Shown: piece by piece, positions 5,743 to 47,402 of the stretch
Layout: each line of letters begins with the position of its first letter
How positions within the stretch are numbered: position 1 is the stretch's first letter
DNA from: Dehalococcoidia bacterium
GTDB lineage: Bacteria; Chloroflexota; Dehalococcoidia; Lucifugimonadales; UBA3495
Length of the DNA: 64,000 nt
Assembly (NCBI GenBank): GCA_965232845.1
Contig: OZ247428.1
Coordinates: forward strand, 1,159,535 to 1,223,534
Reading direction: 5' to 3'
Position numbers and translations under genes: made by a program
The notes under the pieces: generated by a model
Seen by the model: the letters and a program-made list of their open reading frames with translations, nothing else
The model's database searches: none
What the model was told of the DNA's origin: nothing

Positions 5743-6023
5743 CGGAATGTCATTCCCTCCGAAAAAGACCGGGCAAGTAAACCAGCCTATTCATCCCCTG
5801 GTTGGAGAAAACCTGAATGCCCTTTCAGGTTTGGCCTAGTATAGACCATTTCCCTTCGCTTTTCCCACCCATTACGAGGTATTGGGACTCTGCACAAGAA
5901 TTCGCCGTTGCACATAAATTCAACGTCCTGCAGAAAAAGTCTCGTCGGGGGAGAGGTCTGGCCTTGCCAGAAAAAATGCGAGCAGAAGGGGTATCAGCAC
6001 GGGCCGATTTCGGGAGAATAGCA

Positions 6024-6338
6024 ATGTCTAAGCTGACTCGGGACTGTCTTGAGGAGCTAGAATCTCTCTTGCGGGATTACATCATCGAAGTGGGGGAATC
6101 TGGTCTAACTTCCAGCATTAAGAGAACCTACATACGTCATGCCAGCACATTTGTGCGCTGGGTGTCAGATGACTTCACGCCAGGGGAAAGAGCTTCAACG
6201 TCGTCGAGAAAGAGATTTGCAGACAGCCGAAACCCAACGGCGCCACATGGGAATGTGATCAATAGAACCATCTCAAGGAGGAATAGTGGAAAGCCAGAAA
6301 GGCTGTGTTCATTACTTTATCGATATAACACAACCTAA
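6024..6338 (+). CDS. Hypothetical small protein, possibly a degraded or frameshifted remnant
   Basis: An internal ATG of track ORF 5817..6338 gives MSKLTRDCLEELESLLRDYIIEVGESGLTSSIKRTYIRHASTFVRWVSDDF. The first ~55 aa look helical. The remainder is low-complexity and overlaps the next ORF by 52 nt. Confidence 0.35.
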   Translation: MSKLTRDCLEELESLLRDYIIEVGESGLTSSIKRTYIRHASTFVRWVSDDFTPGERASTSSRKRFADSRNPTAPHGNVINRTISRRNSGKPERLCSLLYRYNTT

Positions 6339-6471
6339 GTCCGAAGAACGAGCTTCTTACTACCATATCCCTGGGGCTGACCAAATAGTCACCACGATAG
6401 CTCTTGAACAGGCTGGATTTACAGTTCTGAGCGTGGAAGAAGAGCTTAACAATAGCTACGAGAGAATCTGA
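6286..6471 (+). CDS. Hypothetical 61-aa protein
   Basis: GTG start at 6286 with AGGAGG at 6276-6281. I recognise no family. Confidence 0.4.
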   Translation: MESQKGCVHYFIDITQPKSEERASYYHIPGADQIVTTIALEQAGFTVLSVEEELNNSYERI

Positions 6472-6837
6472 GCTACCCTCATGTGGATACGCGGTCACAT
6501 GGGGTTTCGGCAACATCCCATAATCGGAGGTGGAACACGGAGTTATTACTTCAGTGACGCCAACTGCGCCCAAGCAGATAAATCGCTGGAAGAATCTGGG
6601 TTAAGAAACTTGACAGGTTAACTGAAATCGATTGCCCGTTGAACATACTATAGAACGACTTTAGCCCCGCCGGCCATTGCTTGGACTTGGGACGCCGGAT
6701 GGTTGGGGTCGGCAGACGGTGCGCGATGTTGAGACTATAGGAATGGCTAATTTGCAACAAGTACGGACGGCGCAGTTTGGTGTTTGAAAAGTAATTCCGG
6801 TTCGTAACTGAATTAACTAAGAGGAGGCAGAGAACAA

Positions 6838-8223
6838 GTGCCAACACAGGAAAAATCCCTATTCTTCCCTGTTGTACCATCCGACGAATACCATCCGTAC
6901 TTTAAACGCTTAATGGATGGTCCTGTTTACCACCCCGCGCGGGCCATGATGGATTATATCTACCAAGACTTCATAGACCTTGATAAGAATTTTCTCCAGC
7001 AGTTTCAAACCAAAGCATTCGATGCCAGGCTATTTGAACTATATCTGTTTGCCTACTTCTCCAAATCAGGTTTTGAGATTGACCATACCCAACAGAGGCC
7101 GGATTTCATAGTTACCCGGGACGGAGTTACTGTTGCTGTTGAAGCAACTACTGCCGGACCTTCAGATGCAGCACATGCTGAGCGTAATGTACTCCCATCA
7201 GAGCTCGGACCGGAAGAACTCGAGCATTACCTGCATAATGACTTCCAGATAAAGTTGGGGAGCGCCCTTTTTTCCAAGTTGAAGGAAGAGTACTGGAAAC
7301 TCGACCAATGCAAAGGCAAACCACTTGTCCTGGCTATTGAAGCATTCATTAATGAAGAGTCATTAACACTTACCGATGCCTATATCTCCGAATACTTGTA
7401 TGGACATCGACAATCAGCCGAGTGGACGCCTGAAGGGGTGTTAGAGATTCACACAGAAAACGTAGATAGACACATTTCAGGCGACAAGTCCATCCCATCA
7501 AACTTTTTTGCTCAGGAAGGGGCAGAGTACATTAGTGCCGTTATGTTCACCAATAGTGGCACTCATGCCAAGTTTAGCAGGATGGGTTTTCAGCAAGGTC
7601 TTGGAACTGACTATTTTGAGATTATTCGGCGAGGGTACTCTTATACACCTGACCCCGATGCCAGAGACCCATCGTTGTTCTCTTACAGTCTTTCACATCC
7701 TCCAATCGTTGAATGGTGGGGGCAGGGACTGTCGGTCTTTCATAATCCGAATGCCCTTTTCCCTCTTCCAAGGAATTTTATTGCTGGTGCCCTACAGTCC
7801 TACATAGAGGACGGACTCTATAAGTCAGATGCTCCCGACTGGCATCCTTATTCGTCAATTTCAACCCTTATTCCTTTTCATGAAAAAAGAGAGATGCTGC
7901 TCCCTCTGGCACCGACAATATTGGTAACACCAATATCAAAGAGCGAGTTCAGAGATATATGTCCATTCACTAGGTTGGAAGAAATGGGGGTCATTACTGA
8001 GGACGGATGGTTCGTGGATGAATCTGGGGGCTTCTTTGGAGCAATATTCAAGGACAATGTTGACGGCAATTGGGGTTGGATTATTCTTGCACGAGATGAA
8101 TATTACGTATTTCGGGCAATTGAAACGAGTCACTCTCTGCCAAGCCGTGACTTTGCTCGTCGCATGTTGCAATTTGCAATAATGGAGCTCATTACAAAAG
8201 GGCAACGGATTTTCCCTCAATAG
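6838..8223 (+). CDS. Hypothetical 461-aa protein with a possible PD-(D/E)xK-like nuclease motif in the N-terminal third
   Basis: GTG start with GAGGAGG at 6821-6827, and a clean 461-codon ORF. The motif is FELYLFAYF (E67) ... RPDFIV (D89, nt 7102-7104) ... VAVEATT (E102, nt 7141-7143). The spacing is typical of the restriction-endonuclease fold, but the K is replaced by T. Confidence 0.7.
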   Translation: MPTQEKSLFFPVVPSDEYHPYFKRLMDGPVYHPARAMMDYIYQDFIDLDKNFLQQFQTKAFDARLFELYLFAYFSKSGFEIDHTQQRPDFIVTRDGVTVAVEATTAGPSDAAHAERNVLPSELGPEELEHYLHNDFQIKLGSALFSKLKEEYWKLDQCKGKPLVLAIEAFINEESLTLTDAYISEYLYGHRQSAEWTPEGVLEIHTENVDRHISGDKSIPSNFFAQEGAEYISAVMFTNSGTHAKFSRMGFQQGLGTDYFEIIRRGYSYTPDPDARDPSLFSYSLSHPPIVEWWGQGLSVFHNPNALFPLPRNFIAGALQSYIEDGLYKSDAPDWHPYSSISTLIPFHEKREMLLPLAPTILVTPISKSEFRDICPFTRLEEMGVITEDGWFVDESGGFFGAIFKDNVDGNWGWIILARDEYYVFRAIETSHSLPSRDFARRMLQFAIMELITKGQRIFPQ

Positions 8224-8510
8224 ATAGCTGTGTGTTTTTGCACAAATAGTCTCGTTCCTGCACAAGAACGCATCGTTATCGATCAATTATTGCGCAAAGT
8301 CAGGTATTGGTGTGAGGAAGCACGAGCCATTGCGATAAACAACAATAGCTACCTGTAATATTGCTCATAAAGGGCACATGAAAAGTCGTACCCCTGTCAT
8401 CGCTAACCAAGGGAGAACTTGCGGTCCCCTTTTGCGGGCATCTGAAAAGGGAAAGCCAGGGATGCAGAGGGGGCCAAGCAAGAAGTACGACAGAAGCAGC
8501 CGGTGACGCA

Positions 8511-8658: not shown

Positions 8659-10314
8659 CTATCTCCCTACCCACTCGCCGTATACAGGAAATTGACTGCA
8701 AAGGAATTCGATGTAGGCTGGCCGGTTAGACTGATTGACCTCCAAAGCGCGACGCAGCGCGGGTTCCACCTCCGAAGGCTCCGAAACCCGCTCGGTGTGA
8801 AAGCCCAATTCGCCTATCACCCTGGACATATCAACATCATCCGGGCCCAGGACGGAGTGGGTGAACGGGTCGTGGCCTGGCCCCCAGAAGCCGGGACCGT
8901 AACCGGCAAAGCCGCCATTACTGATGTGAACCACGGTAACACCCAGGTTCTGGCGCAGGGCAACTTCCAAATTGCCCAGCATGTAGCCCAGTCCCGCCTC
9001 GCCGGTTACAGTTACCGCGGGGCGATTCTGGTCTGCCATTCTTGCGGCAACAGAAGCTGCCCAACCGAAGCCCAGCGTTGAAACATTGCCCCAGCCAAGG
9101 AATGCCCGTGGCACCAGGGTTTCGTACATGGTACTGAGCTGGTCACGGGTATTACCGGACTCGTGAGTGATGAAAGAGTTGTAAGGGTCCAACACTTCCA
9201 TCAGGCCCGCGTACACCCGGTAAGGATTAATGGGCTTGTCCTCTGAGGCCATGGCTTCCCGGTACGGGGCCATTCCGGCATCCCGCTCATTCCTGACTTC
9301 GAGTGCAACGTCTTCCCGAGATCTTACGGCCTGGACCGGCCTTGTGGACAGCTCTTCGGTCAACGCTTGCAAGGATTGACGGGCATCGCCAATGACGGCC
9401 TGGGCCGTGGGATAAACCTTGTTAATATGGAGATCATCGACGTCGCAGTGAACGATAGTCTTTCCAACAGCGTTGGGAATCCGATGACTAAACCTGCCGG
9501 GCGAAAGACTGGTACCGACCGCGAAGATCAAGTCGCTGTCGTTCAGATAGTTGGTAACCTGACCACCGCGGACACCGACAAACAGAGGATGATTCTCGGG
9601 AAAGGCGCCCTTTGCCTTAAGGGTGGTAACCACCGGCGCGTTAGCCATCTCAGCCAGGGACAACAGTTCTTCAGAAGCACCGGCATAGATTACGCCTTCC
9701 CCAGCATAAATGAGGGGCTTCTGGGCCTGCGTGAGCAAGTCTATCGCCATGCCCACATCCTCCCGCGCGGGTCCGTGCTTCCAACCCTTCACGGGAGTAT
9801 AGGGATCGGCCGTTTCATCGTAAGTGCCGGCAGGATCTGGAACAGCCAGGATGACGGGCCCAGGCCGGCCGCTCCTCAAGAGGGTGAAGGCTCGCCGCAT
9901 GAATTCCGGGACCCGTTCCGGCCGGTCGATATAGCCAAACCACTTCGAAACGGTGGTCATACTTCTGAAGACATCAAACTGGGTGTTTTCAGAGCTCCCC
10001 GCAGGGATGCCATCGGTGATGCAAAGCACCGGGGAACCGTCCTCAAACGCCTGGGCCATACCGGCGTACGCGTATTGCATACCGGCGGCATTTACACCCC
10101 CCTGGAAAGTGCAAACACCTATCTGGCGTCCAGCAGTTATTCGGGAAAAGGCATCGGCCACGGCGACTGCATAACGGTCGTCGCGCATCATGAGCATAGG
10201 GATACCTTCCCGACCGAGGGCGTTGTTTACCCGGCAAACTGGGAATGTGGAAACCCACTCCACCCCTTCCTGTTTCAAAATTCGAGCTATGCCGGTAGCT
10301 GCGTCGATAGTCAT
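8659..10314 (-). CDS. Thiamine-diphosphate-dependent enzyme (acetolactate synthase large-subunit-like family)
   Basis: 551 aa. The N-terminal pyrimidine-binding domain reads TGIARILKQEGVEWVSTFPV...VCTFQGGVNAAGMQYAYAGMAQAFEDGSPVLCI. A C-terminal ThDP-binding GDG-like region TVTGEAGLGYMLGNLEVA is also present. Confidence 0.85.
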   Translation of the reverse strand: MTIDAATGIARILKQEGVEWVSTFPVCRVNNALGREGIPMLMMRDDRYAVAVADAFSRITAGRQIGVCTFQGGVNAAGMQYAYAGMAQAFEDGSPVLCITDGIPAGSSENTQFDVFRSMTTVSKWFGYIDRPERVPEFMRRAFTLLRSGRPGPVILAVPDPAGTYDETADPYTPVKGWKHGPAREDVGMAIDLLTQAQKPLIYAGEGVIYAGASEELLSLAEMANAPVVTTLKAKGAFPENHPLFVGVRGGQVTNYLNDSDLIFAVGTSLSPGRFSHRIPNAVGKTIVHCDVDDLHINKVYPTAQAVIGDARQSLQALTEELSTRPVQAVRSREDVALEVRNERDAGMAPYREAMASEDKPINPYRVYAGLMEVLDPYNSFITHESGNTRDQLSTMYETLVPRAFLGWGNVSTLGFGWAASVAARMADQNRPAVTVTGEAGLGYMLGNLEVALRQNLGVTVVHISNGGFAGYGPGFWGPGHDPFTHSVLGPDDVDMSRVIGELGFHTERVSEPSEVEPALRRALEVNQSNRPAYIEFLCSQFPVYGEWVGR

Positions 10315-10411
10315 TAGTCAGTCTCCCTTCCCGTTGTATTTGAACCTTTCAGTCAATGCGAGCTTACTCTAACACCAAGGCCGATAGCTGTCATCCAACC
10401 GGTGCCTCCAT

Positions 10412-10427
10412 GCAGGGCAATCGCGTT
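10412..10427. repeat. Left boundary repeat GCAGGGCAATCGCGTT, inverted copy of 11360-11375
   Basis: The reverse complement of 10412-10427 equals AACGCGATTGCCCTGC at 11360-11375 (16/16). It overlaps a local hairpin CAATCG-N9-CGATTG at 10418-10438. Confidence 0.8.
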
Positions 10428-10435
10428 ATAAACGA

Positions 10436-10470
10436 TTGTCATGCTGAGCGAAGCCGAAGCATCTGAATCC
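10436..10470 (+). repeat. Single inverted-orientation copy of the array core motif
   Basis: Plus-strand TGTCATGCTGAGCGAAGCCGAAGCATCTGAATCC aligns with the minus-strand array core TGTCACCCTGAGCTTGCCGAAGGGTCTAAAGTCC. Confidence 0.7.
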
Positions 10471-11322
10471 AACCCAGCAACCTTGTTTCGGGCCTTGAGC
10501 CTGACTCCTGTCAGGGACTTTAGACCCTTCGGCAAGCTCAGGGTGACTGTTTTAAGCTCAGGGTGACATGTTTTCCCATCAGTGTTTCGGGCCTTGAGCC
10601 TGACTCCTGTCAGGGACTTTAGACCCTTCGGCAAGCTCAGGGTGACATGACTTATGCTCAGGGTGGCATGTTTTAGGCTCAGGGTGGCATGTTTTAGGCT
10701 CAGGGTGGCATGACTTTTTCCAGCGGGGTTTCGGGGGTTGAGGGTGACTGCTGTCGGGGAGTTTAGGCCCTTCGGCAAGCTCAGGGTGACTTGTTTTCCC
10801 AGCAGTGTTTCGGGGGTTGAGGGTGACTGCTGTCGGGGAGTTTAGGCCCTTCGGCAAGCTCAGGGTGACATGTTTTCCCAGCAGTGTTTCGGGCCTTGAG
10901 CCTGACTCCTGTCTGGGACTTTAGACCCTTCGGCAAGCTCAGGGTGACATGTTTTATGCTCAGGGTGACATGTTTTATGCTCAGGGTGACATGTTTTCCC
11001 AGCAGTGTTTCGGGCCTTGAGCCTGACTCCTGTCTGGGACTTTAGACCCTTCGGCAAGCTCAGGGTGACATGTTTTAAGCTCAGGGTGACATGTTTTCCC
11101 AGCAGTGTTTCGGGCCTTGAGCCTGACTCCTGTCCGGGACTTTAGACCCTTCGGCAAGCTCAGGGTGACATGTTTTATGCTCAGGGTGACATGTTTTCCC
11201 AGCAGTGTTTCGGGCCTTGTGCGTGACTCCTGTCATGGACTTTAGACCCTTCGGCAAGCTCAGGGTGACATGTTTTATGCTCAGGGTGACATGTTTTCCC
11301 AGCTTAGGGTGACATGTTTTGC
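10471..11322. repeat. Composite tandem repeat array with 8 long (~58 nt) units interleaved with 18 short (21 nt) units
   Basis: The short unit GCTCAGGGTGACATGTTTTAT starts near 10536, 10556, 10634, 10655, 10677, 10698, 10778, 10858, 10937, 10958, 10979, 11057, 11078, 11157, 11178, 11257, 11278 and 11301. The long unit is CCAGCAGTGTTTCGGGCCTTGAGCCTGACTCCTGTCTGGGACTTTAGACCCTTCGGCAA, present 8 times. Higher-order periods are 79, 100 and 121 nt. Confidence 0.9.
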
Positions 11323-11352
11323 CATCAGAATGAACTTGCACATATCAACACG

Positions 11353-11392
11353 AACTTAAAACGCGATTGCCCTGCGCCTCCAGGGCAATCGC
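11353..11392 (-). terminator. Perfect 12-bp hairpin. It is a likely minus-strand intrinsic terminator and also the right boundary repeat of the array.
   Basis: GCGATTGCCCTG (11363-11374), loop CGCCTC, then CAGGGCAATCGC (11381-11392). On the minus strand the hairpin is followed by GTTTTAAGTT. Confidence 0.5.
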
Positions 11393-11451
11393 ATTTAAAG
11401 GGCAGGGCTTTCCCGGACGGTATGTTCCCATTCCGGGGCAGGGACGAAAAG

Positions 11452-11464
11452 CCCCCCCCCCCCC
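11452..11464. repeat. Homopolymeric C13 tract
   Basis: Read directly as gaaaag-ccccccccccccc-gatattt. It is intergenic. Confidence 0.9.
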
Positions 11465-11749
11465 GATATTTCGGCTCATTTTCATCCACCAACCGGCAGC
11501 CGGCGAAGAGAAGGGGCAAAGGGGGTTACAAAGAAGGCACCACTTTGAACGCCGTAGAAGCGGGTTACGGGAACTGTCCGGTGCCGATTGCCGTTGGACT
11601 GGGCGCACGTTGGTCCACTAAAGAATAGCAAGAGGGTTTATCGAAGAGTCTTCGAAAATGTTCCCAATGAGAATATCAATGCCATAGCCTTATCGTGGCC
11701 TCTTCAGGCAGCCTCCGAAACCAGGTATATGGAGGGCCCAGGCACTTCG

Positions 11750-13300
11750 TCAGGACCGAGAATTGTATTTGGTGAATGGGGCGCCGTCGTCGGGCAAAGT
11801 TCCCAGGTAAAAGGAACGCAAGTAAGGCTCAACCAACCGGGCCAGGTCTCGCCGTTCCAACTCTAGAGGAGTTAACGGCCTGTCGAGCGCTTTCTTCAGT
11901 TCCTTGAACAGGTCCTCCTTGTCTACCCTGGTGTGTTGACCGTCACGGAAGACCACTTCGCCGTCCACAAGGACGGTGTCAACGTCTATGCCCCTCCCCC
12001 GGTGTACCAGGGCATCGACCACAGAAACCTCCGGGTCAAGGTAAGGCTCTTCGATGTTTCTGAGGTCCAGCAGCACCATGTCGGCACGTTTACCCGGCTC
12101 CAAAGTGCCAATCCGGTCACCAAACCAACTGGCGTAAGCCCCATTGACCGTCGCCATTTCCAGCACCTGATACGAAGTAGGCGGTTCGAGGTCTATCCCC
12201 GGAACCCTATGCAGCTTGAGTACCAACCGCATTTCCTGGAAGAGGTCCTTGTCGTCGTTGAGACCTGCTTCGTCGCTGCCTATCGCAACCTTGACGCCGG
12301 CCGCCAGAATACGGCCCACAGGAGCAATTCCGCTTTGCAGTCGCAGGTTGGAGCTGGCATTGTGGCAAATGTTGGTCCCGGTGGACGCCATCAATTGCAG
12401 ATCTTCTTCAGTGGCCCAGACGCTGTGGCCGCATGTAACTTCCGGACCCAGGAAATCCAGATCGTGCAGGTGCTGCAGGGGAGTCTTACCGTAAGCCCGA
12501 TAACCGTAGAGTTTCTGGTAAACGGTTTCCTGGAGATGAATGTGAATGCCGGTGTTGTACCGGTTCGCCAGTTGCTTCAGGGCAATGAGCAATTCGTCAG
12601 AACAGCGATGCACATTGCTGGGGGCCATCGTAACCTGCACACGCTCATGCTGGTTGTTTCCATACTTCCGGCAAATATCATCCAGGACAGGAATCACGTT
12701 CGAAACCGGCCAGTAGCTGGGAGCCATCAGGGACCGATACCGTTCTGCAAGTTCCTGAGGCAGTTGAGCCGCAAAGTCTTCCTCCCCGCCACCAGGGCCA
12801 GCAACCATGGAATTCTGGTCCACCACGGAGGGTGCATAAGAAACCCGCATACCGGAAGTCTGGTATGCACTAACCACCTTGTCAGCTATCTCCATGCTGA
12901 CCGGCCCATACCCTCGACCCGGAGAATGTATCGCCTGCACCGTGGTGGTACCCGTTTCAATCATCTGGATGGCCCCGTAGAGTTGGTCCAAATAGGGGTC
13001 GATAATCCGGGTGCCAATGCGGGCGAGGCTCCACATTTCCAGGGGTAAATCGGGTGCGCCCATTTGGAATGGGGTAAGTCCAACGTGAAAGTGGTCATTG
13101 ACTAAACCCGGCATAACCAGGTGGTGGGTGGAACCGATTAACTCGGCGTCGGGATTTTGCTCGCTGAGCTCCTGGTAGTCGCCTATCGCTTCTATTGCCC
13201 CGTTATTAGCCAGGACTCCACCATCCGTAACAACAATCGCGGAATCCGAACCGGTTACTTTGCAGACCACATACTTTCCACGAACCAGTGTTAGAGTCAC
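11750..13300 (-). CDS. Amidohydrolase-superfamily protein (chlorohydrolase / aminohydrolase-like)
   Basis: 516 aa. It carries the metal-binding HxH motif in LVMPGLVNDHFHVGLTP, then later IHIHLQET and GHSVW, and a C-terminal GSDEAGLNDD. Confidence 0.85.
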   Translation of the reverse strand: MTLTLVRGKYVVCKVTGSDSAIVVTDGGVLANNGAIEAIGDYQELSEQNPDAELIGSTHHLVMPGLVNDHFHVGLTPFQMGAPDLPLEMWSLARIGTRIIDPYLDQLYGAIQMIETGTTTVQAIHSPGRGYGPVSMEIADKVVSAYQTSGMRVSYAPSVVDQNSMVAGPGGGEEDFAAQLPQELAERYRSLMAPSYWPVSNVIPVLDDICRKYGNNQHERVQVTMAPSNVHRCSDELLIALKQLANRYNTGIHIHLQETVYQKLYGYRAYGKTPLQHLHDLDFLGPEVTCGHSVWATEEDLQLMASTGTNICHNASSNLRLQSGIAPVGRILAAGVKVAIGSDEAGLNDDKDLFQEMRLVLKLHRVPGIDLEPPTSYQVLEMATVNGAYASWFGDRIGTLEPGKRADMVLLDLRNIEEPYLDPEVSVVDALVHRGRGIDVDTVLVDGEVVFRDGQHTRVDKEDLFKELKKALDRPLTPLELERRDLARLVEPYLRSFYLGTLPDDGAPFTKYNSRS

Positions 13301-14982: not shown

Positions 14983-16122
14983 CTACCACTGAACAAACAT
15001 TGGCATTACAACGTGCACGTAGTCGTCGGTGCCGATGGGCTTGAATACGCCAGGGCTGGATGAGGTAGTAGTTTCCAGTGCTACCTGCCCCCGGTCCAGG
15101 ACAGTCAGCACGTCCTGAAGGTACTTGCTGTTGAAGGCAATCTTGGACTCGCCGCCCTCGATGGTTTCGGTGTCGACCTCTCCCTGGTTCTCCCCCACTT
15201 CTTCCGATTTAGCAGAGATCACAGCCTTGCCAATAGCTCCCTCCTCTTCACCCGGCATCATCTGCATCCGGATGATGTTGCTACCGTCGCGGGCAAAAAT
15301 TGCCGCCGTTCGGGCGGCCCGAAGCAGCTTCTGAAGATCAAAAACGCTGCGATTATCGAAATTTTGAGGTATTAGCTGGTCGTAGTTCGGGAAAGTGCCC
15401 TGCAGCAGCTGGGACACAACCTCTATGCCGCCGACTTTGAACAGGACCTGCCCTCGAGCCGGTACCATCATGATTTCCACCGGGTCATCCTGGTCACCAA
15501 GGAGGCGACTCAGTTCGTTGAGGGTCCTTGCCGGAACTATTACACCAATATCGGCTTCAACAGGTTCGGCTAGAGTGCCGTGCTGCACCGCCAATCGGAA
15601 GCCGTCCGCGGCCGCAAGCGTAAATCGATCCCCGGACAACTTGGCCTCTACGCCGGTCAGTACCGGGCGAGACTCTTCAGTCGCCGCCGCGAACACCACC
15701 CGCGAAATTGCCAATTTCAGGTCTTGTGTGCCCACCCGGGCCGAAACTCCTTCTTCCACCTGGGGTATAGGAGGAAAGTCGTCGGCATTGGCTCCGTGGA
15801 TGCGTGCTTCCGCCCGACCGCAAGCCAGCCGCATTACCCCACTTCCAGGCTCCAGTTCCAGGTCAATCCGGTCGCTGGGAAGGGAGTTAACGAATTCTGT
15901 CAACAGTCGGGCCGGAATAGTTATGGAGCCCTCATCCTCAATCATGGCCCCAATCCAAGTGGTTATCGCAATTTCCAGATTGGTGGCGGACAATTTGAGC
16001 ATGGACCGGTCGGTTTCCAGAAGCACATTCTGGGTAATGGGCAACGTAGCCCGGCTGGCAACCGCCCTTCCCACTACGGATAGTCCACGGCTGAGGTTTT
16101 CTTGCAGGCAGGAGAGTTTCAT
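14983..16122 (-). CDS. dnaN: DNA polymerase III beta sliding clamp
   Basis: MKLSCLQENLSRGLSVVGRAVASRATLPITQNVLLETDRSMLKLSATNLEIAI... and ...KIAFNSKYLQDVL. I take Met25 of track ORF 14983..16194 as the start (379 aa). Confidence 0.9.
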   Translation of the reverse strand: MKLSCLQENLSRGLSVVGRAVASRATLPITQNVLLETDRSMLKLSATNLEIAITTWIGAMIEDEGSITIPARLLTEFVNSLPSDRIDLELEPGSGVMRLACGRAEARIHGANADDFPPIPQVEEGVSARVGTQDLKLAISRVVFAAATEESRPVLTGVEAKLSGDRFTLAAADGFRLAVQHGTLAEPVEADIGVIVPARTLNELSRLLGDQDDPVEIMMVPARGQVLFKVGGIEVVSQLLQGTFPNYDQLIPQNFDNRSVFDLQKLLRAARTAAIFARDGSNIIRMQMMPGEEEGAIGKAVISAKSEEVGENQGEVDTETIEGGESKIAFNSKYLQDVLTVLDRGQVALETTTSSSPGVFKPIGTDDYVHVVMPMFVQW

Positions 16123-16359
16123 TGGAAGGTCACCTGAAATTACAGATTGTCGGGGTTGGCCTTTATCAATGGGCCAGGGTTCAATTACAGCCAATTATAT
16201 TATCACAAGCAATTATATGACATTAAGGGCAATGAAGGGAAAGGGGCAATGTCAGAAATGGTCAATCCTCACTCTTGTTTACTTCGTTTACCCCTGATTG
16301 CCTGCCCCTGATTACGATATCTTCCCCAGCTTGCAATGAAACGTGCATAGCTACACATC

Positions 16360-45776: not shown

Positions 45777-47402
45777 ATGGCAGACAAGCAATTGATTTTT
45801 GACGAGCAGGCCCGGGCCAGCCTGATGACGGGCGTGGATAAACTGGGCAAGGTGGTTGGTCTGACTCTTGGCCCCAGCGGACGAAACGTGCTGTTAAACC
45901 GGATGTGGTCGTTGCCCGTCGTTTGCAGCGACGGAGTCACAATTGCCAAAGAAGTTGAACTACCCGATGTTTATGAAAATATGGGTGCGCAGTTGGTCAA
46001 GGAAGCTGCTTCCAAGACCAACGACGTGGTTGGGGACGGAACCACAACGTCCGTGGTGTTGGCTCGCTCCATCATACGTAACGGTTTCATGAACATCGCC
46101 GCCGGCGCCAACGGCATGGACCTGAAGTCAGGTATTGACAAGGCTGTCAGGGCGGTAGCGAAGGAAATTGCAGAGATCGCTATTCCGGTCGAAAATCGGG
46201 AACAGATCGCCCGGGTGGCAGCCCTCTCCGCTCACGAAGAAGGAATCGCAGACCTTATCGCAGAAGCTATGGACAAGGTAGGTCGAGAAGGCGTTATCAC
46301 CATCGAAGAGTCCAAGAGCATGGTTGACGAGCTTGACTTTGTGGAAGGCATGCGCCTGGACCGGGGTTACTTGTCGCCACACTTCGTTACCGACGCCCAG
46401 CGCATGGAAGTGACGCTGGAAGACCCGCTAATCCTGATAACCGACACCAAAGTATCTTCCGTCAACGACATAGTCCCGACACTGGAAAAAGTCTCCCAGG
46501 CCGGTGGCCGGCCCCTGGCGATTATCGCAGAAGACGTTGACGGTGAGGCCCTGGCGACCCTGGTTGTGAATAAATTGAGGGGGACAATTTCTTGCGTGGC
46601 AGTCAAGGCCCCCGGCTTTGGGGACCGGCGCAAGGCGCTTCTCGAAGACATCGCAATCATGACCGGCGCTACCGTAATAAGCAATGACACCGGCCTTTCC
46701 CTTGACGCGGTGGAAGTCAGCCACCTTGGTTCCGCTCGGCGCATCGTCGCAGTGAAGGACGAAACGACCATTGTAGAGGGGCGTGGCGCACCAGAGGCCA
46801 CTGAGTCCAGGGTCGCGCAGATCCGTGTCCAGGTAGAAGAAACTACCTCCGACTACGACCGGGAGAAACTCCAGGAACGCCTGGCAGCCCTGGTCGGAGG
46901 GGTGGCCGTTATTCGAGTCGGAGCCGCCACCGAACCAGAGATGAATGAACGCAAGTCCCGCACCGAGGACGCTCTTTCTGCTACCAGGGCGGCCGTTGAA
47001 GAGGGAATCGTCCCCGGTGGCGGTGTCACCTTGATCCGCGCAGAAAAGGTCCTCGACGATCTCCAGGCCACTCTGTCCGGGGACGCAGCTTTGGGCGTTC
47101 GCTTGATTCTTGACGCACTGTCGGCTCCCCTGGAACTCATAACTGAGAACGCGGGGCATCCCGGGCAGGTGATTCTGGACAAAGTGCGTGAAGGCGAAGG
47201 TGACTGGGGCTTTGATGCCGAAAAAGGCGAGTATACTCACCTCATGCAATCAGGAATCATAGACCCCGCCAAGGTTACCCGTTCGGCCCTGCAGAATGCC
47301 TGCAGCATCGCGGCGATGTTGCTGACCACCCAGGCTGTGGTGGCTGAGATCCCAGTATTCACGCCCTTACCGGCCGATGTCCAGGACTTCATGCACGATT
47401 AA
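45777..47402 (+). CDS. groEL: Chaperonin GroEL (diverged paralog)
   Basis: GPSGRNVLL...AGDGTTT-type motif as [12 protein letters not shown], plus [14 protein letters not shown] and IVPGGGV. A GGAGG RBS lies at 45762-45766. Confidence 0.9.

Follow-up and report, generated by a model that had tools for sequence, protein, structure and literature searches.

A composite tandem array of small DNA hairpins upstream of a thiamine pyrophosphate-dependent enzyme gene in a Dehalococcoidia bacterium, with the architecture of Ssn-type repeats

The locus and its composite array

The window analyzed here is a stretch of 64,000 nucleotides (nt) from the genome of a Dehalococcoidia bacterium (GenBank assembly GCA_965232845.1, contig OZ247428.1, positions 1,159,535 to 1,223,534). 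Between two of its minus-strand genes, one for a thiamine pyrophosphate (TPP)-dependent enzyme (8659–10314) and one for an amidohydrolase (11750–13300), lies a composite tandem array (10484–11322, minus strand), in which eight copies of a full hairpin with an interior of ~50 nt are interleaved with 10 extra half-sites. We consider it probable that the array contains no gene and is a cluster of a single small DNA hairpin element, amplified on the spot, which came to lie (or was kept) between the amidohydrolase gene and the TPP promoter as an insertion of 966 bp. On this reading the array is a new architectural variant of the recently described Ssn-type repeat family, and not a new kind of system.

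The organization of the array was determined with Tandem Repeats Finder, which returned nested periods of 20/21, 79, 100, and 121 nt (90–100% matches) over 10534–11320, and by splitting the sequence at the core GCT[CT]AGGGTG, which gave 18 short cores. The eight long units are ~58 nt in length, and GACCCTTCGGCAA stands at the end of each. They are followed, in order, by 2, 4, 1, 1, 3, 2, 2, and 3 cores, exactly as stated in a preliminary description of the locus, which had counted 18 short and 8 long units; the start-to-start distances of the long units are 99, 144, 79, 79, 121, 100, and 100 nt. Allowing up to three mismatches, the short unit has 17 matches in the window, every one of them within the array, and the 22-mer at the junction of long and short units has eight, none of them outside it (0.01 expected from shuffles in both cases). 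The long units occur as successive variants (units 1–2; units 3–4, the "B" type; units 5–7; and unit 8), adjacent units being the most similar, and the array has a higher-order repeat of 97–99% identity, which in the right half has a period of 100 nt and an identity of 97%. These two features are the signature of local tandem duplication. The long-unit interior had no match in a metagenome scan and is so far unique, and neither the inner flank nor the long unit has further copies in all the sequence compared (window and fetched loci).

The preliminary description treated the short and the long units as two independent types. However, GACCCTTCGGCAAGCTCAGGGTGACA, the sequence at every junction between them, forms a hairpin, which on the minus strand is TGTC-ACCCT-GAGCTTGCCGA-AGGGT-C, that is, an unpaired TGTC, a 5-bp stem (ACCCT/AGGGT) closing the loop GAGC-N4-CGA, and a C. 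On the same strand, the 21-nt short unit is TGTCACCCTGAGC followed by the 8 nt ATAAAACA, and comprises the unpaired TGTC with the 5′ arm and the start of the loop but lacks the 3′ arm, while the long unit begins with the 3′ half of the complete hairpin and continues into an interior of ~45–50 nt. The 21-nt and 58-nt units are thus parts of one element. Upstream of each complete hairpin there are 0–3 extra half-sites, and each run of short units terminates in a complete hairpin. All eight full hairpins and all 10 half-sites share one direct orientation; on the minus strand the unit reads AAAACATGTCACCCTGAGCTTGCCGAAGGGTCTAAAG.

The eight full hairpins, (A/T)GTC-ACCCT-GAGCTTGCCGA-AGGGT-C on the minus strand, are located at 10521–10548 (30.8 bits with the covariance model R1), 10620–10647 (36.7 bits), 10764–10791 (29.6 bits; B-type unit, with the 3′ arm AGGGC), 10843–10870 (35.5 bits; B-type unit), 10922–10949, 11043–11070, 11143–11170, and 11243–11270 (36.7 bits for each of the last four). 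The ten extra half-site cores start, in plus-strand coordinates, at 10556, 10656, 10677, 10698, 10958, 10979, 11079, 11179, 11279, and 11302; the first of them, with its spacer, spans 10556–10575 and holds only the 5′ half, TGTCACCCTGAGC. A ninth full hairpin, TTGTC-ATGCT-GAGCGAAGCCGA-AGCAT-C, was found on the plus strand at 10437–10465, both by pattern match and by the covariance model (29.7 bits, E 8e-5), and the start of 10436 given in the preliminary description takes it in. This hairpin is opposite to the array and 55 nt from its first hairpin, so that at its left end the array has an inverted hairpin doublet whose TGTC sequences face outward. Each long unit also contains a degenerate, hairpin-like segment, read from the sequence as GTCAGGCTCAAGGCCCGAAAC (GTCACCCTCAACCCCCGAAAC in the B-type units 3–4) and located in unit 5, for example, at 10886–10906 on the minus strand; its likeness to a decayed hairpin is suggestive only.

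In agreement with the preliminary description, the array does not encode a repeat protein. The open reading frames (ORFs) over it are short and shift frame, and the longest (141 amino acids) has no homologue among 5.8 billion proteins.

A hairpin class beside small GIY-YIG genes

When one genome per species was scanned for two GCTCAGGGTGRC cores 7–11 nt apart, at least 119 loci were returned; among those listed are Eremiobacterota, Bacteroidota, Dehalococcoidia, Gemmatimonadales, Nitrospirales, Planctomycetia, Clostridia, and others. The grammar of full hairpins and half-sites is common to all the loci listed, and a complete hairpin ends 109 of their 136 half-site runs (80%). The class consensus is TGTC-A-N4-GAGC-N4/5-CGA-N4-T, with a conserved 5′ TGTC in 347 instances in 0.9 Mb of fetched loci and with stems that include ACC/GGT, ATT/AAT, ATG/CAT, ATC/GAT, and AGT/ACT. 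The preliminary description had raised the possibility of an abundant dispersed repeat. The hairpin core is indeed abundant across phyla, but it is sparse in the lineage of the window: the hairpin covariance model, built from protein-anchored hairpins, gave nine matches in the window, all of them within 10437–11270 and none elsewhere in the 64 kb (next best, E 0.77), and one match in 88 kb of close relatives. The same description had pointed to a resemblance to the GTCAYCCTGAGC...GAAG elements that yield VILSEAKDL-like junk ORFs, and here it was right. The junction hairpin is in that family, a member of which, GTCATCCTGAGCGCAGCGAAGGATC, flanks a GIY-YIG gene in locus L204 and translates to VILSAAKD. 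A literature search with the junk-ORF peptides and the 12-mer cores gave primer coincidences only. More complex arrays, with two stem types, both orientations, and half-sites mixed in, were seen in L032 (4100–4800) and L096 (6000–6800), and the Desulfatirhabdium contig L002 (1–400) carries a complex array with a composite period of 78 + 23 nt.

Among class instances chosen without a pairing requirement, four of the five stem pairs covary, and GTCA is invariant in the A2 set. We counted 28 double-change cells, against 8.0 ± 2.1 in shuffles (0 of 500 reached the observed value), and 87% of the cells were paired, against 35–50% with slid partners. The covariation suggests a folded single strand rather than a duplex site. 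The loop can be read as tandem G·A/A·G mismatches around a G-C pair, often enclosing GC-GNA-GC, and this reading favors the TGTC strand as the structured one.

When all ORFs of the at least 119 loci were clustered, one small recurrent family was found to abut the hairpins. Its proteins are ~100 amino acids long (94–115), and GIY-YIG (PF01541) is their sole full-length Pfam match above the cut-off; ORFs that match PF01541 only stand beside inverted hairpins in L033, L078, and L082. As an independent test set, 80 metagenome loci with 82 GIY-YIG genes were fetched by protein similarity alone. A hairpin lies within 250 nt of 25 of the 82 genes, and on both sides of 16, and about 49 of the 54 hairpins in these loci fall within the gene-adjacent 24% of the sequence (binomial P ~4e-25). 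The dominant layout is an inverted pair around the gene with TGTC outermost (hp> gene <hp); L165, L204, and L212 are further examples of hairpin-flanked genes. More than 7,900 homologues have E values below 1e-10, and the named ones include records labeled Chloroflexi, Anaerolineae (P0223 and P0231 are Chloroflexi/Anaerolineae-labeled), and cyanobacteria. Many of the closest homologues are on contigs of ~1 kb, which is consistent with repeats breaking short-read assemblies.

The architecture of the array recurs at intact cassettes. Directly upstream of the GIY-YIG gene in L178 are nine half-sites with a period of 23–25 nt, and two half-sites precede that in L186. In L212, whose GIY-YIG protein is labeled Chloroflexi by NCBI, the gene lies between identical inverted hairpins; the right one is followed by two half-sites with a 20-nt period, and then by a duplicated block made of the 3′ end of the gene, a hairpin, and a half-site. 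This is a long/short composite array like that of the window.

Single-domain GIY-YIG nucleases of ~94 amino acids (cd10448) have been described as Ssn (Chenal et al., Nat Commun 2025, PMC11893778). According to the main text of that paper, they bind hairpin repeats, namely the NTS of Neisseria and the "Ssn-related motifs" (SRM) found elsewhere, as single-stranded DNA (ssDNA) only and on one strand only, and they cut upstream of the hairpin. The GTC upstream and the C after the palindrome are important for NTS/SRM; the repeats flank the ssn gene like the ends of an insertion sequence (IS) and cluster like bacterial interspersed mosaic elements (BIMEs); and the system modulates transformation in Neisseria (PMC11893778).

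The hairpin class described here resembles the NTS/SRM, as presented in that text, in being a short oriented hairpin with an unpaired (C/T)GTC on its 5′ side, a stem closed by A...T, and a C after the palindrome, so that the outer architecture (C/T)GTC-A-[stem]...[stem]-T-C is common to both classes. The array hairpins likewise are semi-palindromes with an unpaired GTC upstream and a C just after. Both classes are mostly intergenic and clustered, and form inverted pairs around single-domain GIY-YIG genes of ~95 amino acids in an IS-like arrangement. The two are further connected by plasmid-borne GIY-YIG homologues of Sphingobium and Shinella, which have exact matches to the published SRM pattern (HGTCWYN(0-2)YYVSBRHN(0-5)WNVSBRGN(0-2)RNCYNB) on either side and whose proteins match those flanked by GAGC hairpins with blastp E values of 1e-21 to 1e-33 (1e-32 for the L204 protein, 2e-27 for that of L165). 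The classes differ in that the hairpins here have a stem of 4–5 bp and a conserved GAGC-N4/5-CGA loop instead of a long GC-rich stem. Tandem arrays, half-site stutter, composite units, Chloroflexi, and Bacteroidetes go unmentioned in the main text of PMC11893778, where "tandem" occurs 0 times. There is no nuclease gene near the array (none in the 64-kb window), and the host lineage has few copies of the hairpin, as opposed to the hundreds reported there for Neisseria.

Unlike the NTS/SRM, the GAGC class also flanks UPF0213-like GIY-YIG genes. Two protein subtypes carry its hairpins: those near the SRM-flanked genes, of which 16 of 27 are flanked, and the UPF0213-like ones, with 10 of 56. The hairpin association therefore appears to exceed the clade nearest the SRM-flanked genes. 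Small UPF0213-like genes (relatives of PDB 1ywl/1zg2, E 1e-13) within inverted GAGC-class hairpins are found in L033, L078, L082, L115, and L149. In L206 (Methylobacterium bullatum, 1380–1900), a GIY-YIG gene is flanked by a longer hairpin variant, CTCATCCTGAGGTGCCGGAGCGTAGCGGAGGCCTCGAAGGAGG, which seems to stand midway between the GAGC class and the SRMs with long stems.

The 966-bp segment and its neighborhood

The whole array is borne on a segment of 966 bp (10410–11375) that is absent at the orthologous site of a close relative, L125. By blastn, positions 11850–11376 of the window correspond to 7426–7911 of L125, and 10409–10250 to 7906–8065; in L125, position 11376 is thus joined directly to 10409 via a shared GGAGGC, as a three-way junction alignment confirmed. 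In this relative the TPP protein is 99% identical and the nucleotide sequence ~88–92% identical, the gene order is the same, and the gap between the amidohydrolase and TPP genes is only ~430 nt. The GGAGGC, which is single in the empty site of L125 (7906–7911), occurs in the window as a 6-bp direct repeat resembling a target-site duplication, with a left copy at 10404–10409 and a right copy at 11376–11381 (both on the minus strand).

At the ends of the segment, which has no ORF with homologues, are 20-nt terminal inverted repeats, the left one (GCAGGGCAATCGCGTTATAA, 10412–10431, plus strand) being 95% complementary to the right one (11356–11375, minus strand). A third, more diverged copy of the repeat arm lies in the pre-existing flank, orthologous to L125 (11381–11400, plus strand), and forms a long hairpin with 11356–11375. 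The window and all the fetched loci contain no second copy of this inverted repeat. Among 120 arrays listed, flanking repeats other than hairpins are clear in this one alone, L113 being marginal (14 nt). A segment without ORF, with 20-nt terminal inverted repeats, a 6-bp direct repeat, and presence or absence between relatives is like a miniature inverted-repeat transposable element; it differs from one in having no second copy in the sequences compared, in its insertion beside a pre-existing end-like sequence, and in an interior that is a tandem array.

Other relatives were found as homologues of the TPP enzyme, the named matches at 78–79% identity being Dehalococcoidia/Chloroflexi. In L124, the spacer between the amidohydrolase and TPP genes is 136 nt and has no array. 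L120 and L210, whose TPP enzymes are 95% identical to that of the window, have neither array nor amidohydrolase gene, the TPP gene following a cation-efflux gene after ~280 nt, and in L122 and L123 the upstream genes or regions are unrelated and there is no hairpin upstream of the TPP gene. A promoter-like site of the TPP gene, ATGACA-17-TAGAGT with a TG, was found by scan at 10366–10394 (minus strand). It lies 16 nt downstream of the insertion boundary, outside the element, and is kept in L120, L124, and L125.

To the right of the amidohydrolase gene are the cation-efflux gene and, 3.7 kb from the array, dnaN (14983–16194, minus strand). The latter has no adjacent dnaA and is next to a divergent AlaX-like gene and a hydantoinase gene, in an order also found in L120, L124, and L125; the cumulative GC skew declines steadily over the window without a turning point. 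The amidohydrolase matches the NCBIfam model "putative aminohydrolase SsnA" with 140 bits against a cut-off of 444, a mere clash of names with the Ssn nucleases. Downstream of its gene, ~370 nt of non-coding sequence (11376–11749) are ~75% conserved with L125 and absent in L124. At 11453–11465 in this spacer, 130 nt from the array, there are 13 consecutive C (G on the strand of the genes), where the orthologous stretch of L125 has no homopolymer; the tract may be prone to slippage or reflect an error in sequencing. Just downstream of the TPP gene, a 2.5-kb segment of low GC content (0.46–0.48; 5886–8435) takes the place of a DDE_5 transposase in L125. Its 461-amino acid ORF (6838–8223, plus strand) has no Pfam or NCBIfam match and is a candidate PD-T7-1 defense protein by PADLOC (E 1e-128). 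With this segment on one side and the array insertion on the other, directly upstream of the promoter, both flanks of the TPP gene are therefore variable, and the locus is a variable hotspot with a defense-like gene opposite the insertion.

Alternative explanations, origin, and meaning

Several observations weigh against our interpretation. The strict hairpin class stands at only 30% of the sampled GIY-YIG genes. The published SRM pattern, as a regular expression that matches canonical NTS, matches no array unit; its sole match in the window is at 46508 (0.65 in shuffles), and 199 kb around the 82 GIY-YIG genes gave one match, apparently unrelated. By the published pattern definition, then, the array hairpins are not SRMs, and their membership in the family therefore rests on architecture and on protein homology via intermediates. 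No GIY-YIG gene or remnant was found in the window or in the 88 kb of relatives, and when 130 GIY-YIG proteins were compared by blastx with the insertion and the window, the weak matches were translated hairpins. The terminal inverted repeats are unrelated to the hairpins and lack a second copy in the sequences compared, so that the step of a mobile carrier is drawn from a single case, and the same arrangement would have resulted if L125 had instead lost, by deletion, the sequence between the two direct copies of the repeat arm. Finally, the thermodynamics of the single hairpin is unsupportive (predicted DNA fold of −2.6 kcal/mol with nearest-neighbor energies, z ~0), while the covariation is supportive.

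It is quite unlikely that the array exists but has the wrong length or unit order through collapse or expansion of repeats in a metagenome assembly. The genome probably is such an assembly, the higher-order repeat is nearly identical from copy to copy, and the homopolymer nearby hints at error-prone sequence. Nevertheless, the distinct long-unit variants are ordered, the junctions with the unique flanks, the inverted repeats, and the direct repeat are clean, the host contig of 3.75 Mb suggests long reads, and analogous arrays are found in many independent assemblies.

A transcribed RNA array, one of the roles proposed in the preliminary description, is decidedly improbable. Its hairpins, with GA/GA mismatches and GNA-like loops, would serve as processing or stability elements, as small RNAs, or to insulate the two minus-strand genes from read-through. 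Both flanking genes are on the strand that carries the GA-rich version of the hairpin, and the insertion creates a long hairpin (11355–11400), followed by GTTTTAAG, just downstream of the amidohydrolase gene. Yet the RNA folds of the 100-nt units on both strands are no better than shuffles (z −1.5 to +1.4), and where the long-unit variants differ (GGGCC...GCC to GGGGG...GGG), the predicted inner helices are disrupted without compensation. At gathering scores the whole window has no Rfam match, and at the array locus, with E values up to 10, the matches are at chance level only (mir-190 and PAGEV). The PAGEV match (10268–10478, minus strand) scored 16 bits against a gathering score of 61, and with unpaired stems and an extension into the TPP gene it was rejected as chance; its first loop, UUGGAUUCAGAUGCUUCGG, overlaps the left hairpin element. 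A hammerhead-like reading of CUGAGC...CGAAG was rejected by inspection, as the core positions do not fit that ribozyme. A strand-specific RNA role also leaves the inverted hairpin pairs around GIY-YIG genes unexplained, and close relatives have the same operon without the array. Moreover, according to the main text of Chenal et al., Neisseria SsnA does not bind RNA (PMC11893778).

The closest analogy among the three roles suggested in the preliminary description is a BIME-like cluster of repetitive extragenic palindromes (REPs). In its literal form, the hairpins would be REPs and the array a BIME, mobilized by a REP-associated tyrosine transposase (RAYT), an IS200/IS605-type Y1 enzyme, and this we regard as very improbable. 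REPs are species-specific, carry a GTAG or GTGG tetranucleotide, alternate in orientation, and are associated with a Y1 enzyme (RAYT). The anatomy is similar in that the REPs, BIMEs, and REPINs of E. coli and Pseudomonas also combine an unpaired tetranucleotide with a short hairpin on its 3′ side, form intergenic clusters and gene-less inverted doublets (here hp> 55 nt <hp), and flank a small nuclease gene as inverted pairs; the main text of the Ssn paper draws this analogy too (PMC11893778). In the array, however, the tetranucleotide is TGTC, the units are direct, half-elements are amplified, and the loop is near-identical across phyla. The partner is a small GIY-YIG protein of putative Ssn type instead of an HUH/Y1 transposase: GIY-YIG (PF01541) is the sole small family that recurrently abuts the hairpins at the at least 119 + 80 loci, and no transposase-like family is among the recurrent ORF clusters of the loci listed. 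Membership in the REP/BIME (RAYT) group was rejected on these grounds.

Equally poor are the prospects of an array bound by protein as double-stranded DNA, either as iterons or a centromere-like (parS/sopC-like) array in replication or partition, which the preliminary description had also proposed, or as an operator of the TPP promoter. A period of 21 nt corresponds to two helical turns, the −35 hexamer lies 16 nt downstream of where the array starts, and dnaN is not far off, but no rep, par, or regulator gene is adjacent. The context is one of chromosomal metabolic genes (the TPP enzyme, the amidohydrolase, and the cation-efflux protein, with dnaN beyond); promoter and gene are conserved in five relatives that have no array; unrelated loci of many phyla carry the same half-site repeats beside GIY-YIG genes; and the stem covariation points to a folded single strand. 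A CRISPR array, which shares the short direct repeats, the regular spacing, and the non-coding context, was dismissed here as in the preliminary description, since what lies between the repeats is itself repeated, each "repeat" amounts to one half of a hairpin, a leader is absent, the neighboring genes are metabolic, and no cas gene is among the 12 larger ORFs at 2–19 kb scanned against Pfam, NCBIfam, and PADLOC.

We return to the reading of the array as a locally amplified hairpin cluster within an insertion. Its units would be putative binding or cleavage sites, as ssDNA, for an Ssn-type nuclease. By analogy with Neisseria SsnA, such an enzyme would bind the hairpin of the TGTC strand and make its cut a few nucleotides upstream, so that its predicted substrate is the minus strand in the array but the plus strand at 10437–10465. 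A nuclease of the source genome may act in this way on the minus-strand hairpins. The gene-less hairpin doublet would have been carried in on a non-autonomous element bounded by the terminal inverted repeats, and its right end multiplied by slippage or unequal recombination between hairpin halves, which would explain why adjacent units are most alike and why there is a 100-nt higher-order period. We infer that the 966-bp segment was formerly mobile. The array is probably selfish or neutral DNA, with possible side effects on the recombination of incoming ssDNA and on the adjacent promoter.

We also considered, as an unlikely extension, that the half-site stutter (0–3 copies here, up to ~12 elsewhere) is the footprint of the nuclease, left by repeated cutting of ssDNA a few nucleotides 5′ of the hairpin and slipped resynthesis, and not the product of random slippage. 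If so, Ssn-type cassettes would be active genome remodelers, and the arrays would be multi-site barriers of ssDNA restriction, or nuclease sponges, affecting the recombination of incoming DNA and the neighboring promoter. The Ssn system would then also take in UPF0213-like enzymes and a class of hairpins, both of which escape the published motif.

For the family as a whole, these results identify a repeat that contaminates gene calls across many phyla. The sequences behind the VILSEAKDL, VTLSLSKG, and FDKLRVT junk ORFs are the hairpins at the ends of cassettes for small GIY-YIG nucleases, which are related to the Ssn ssDNA nucleases, and these hairpins form a large cross-phylum class that the published SRM search motif does not capture. 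The architecture, with its polar amplification of half-sites and its composite arrays, both at cassette ends and in gene-less insertions, is absent from the main text of the Ssn paper (PMC11893778). For enzyme discovery, the class offers many candidate pairs of nuclease and hairpin, and for genome annotation, a simple covariance model for masking.

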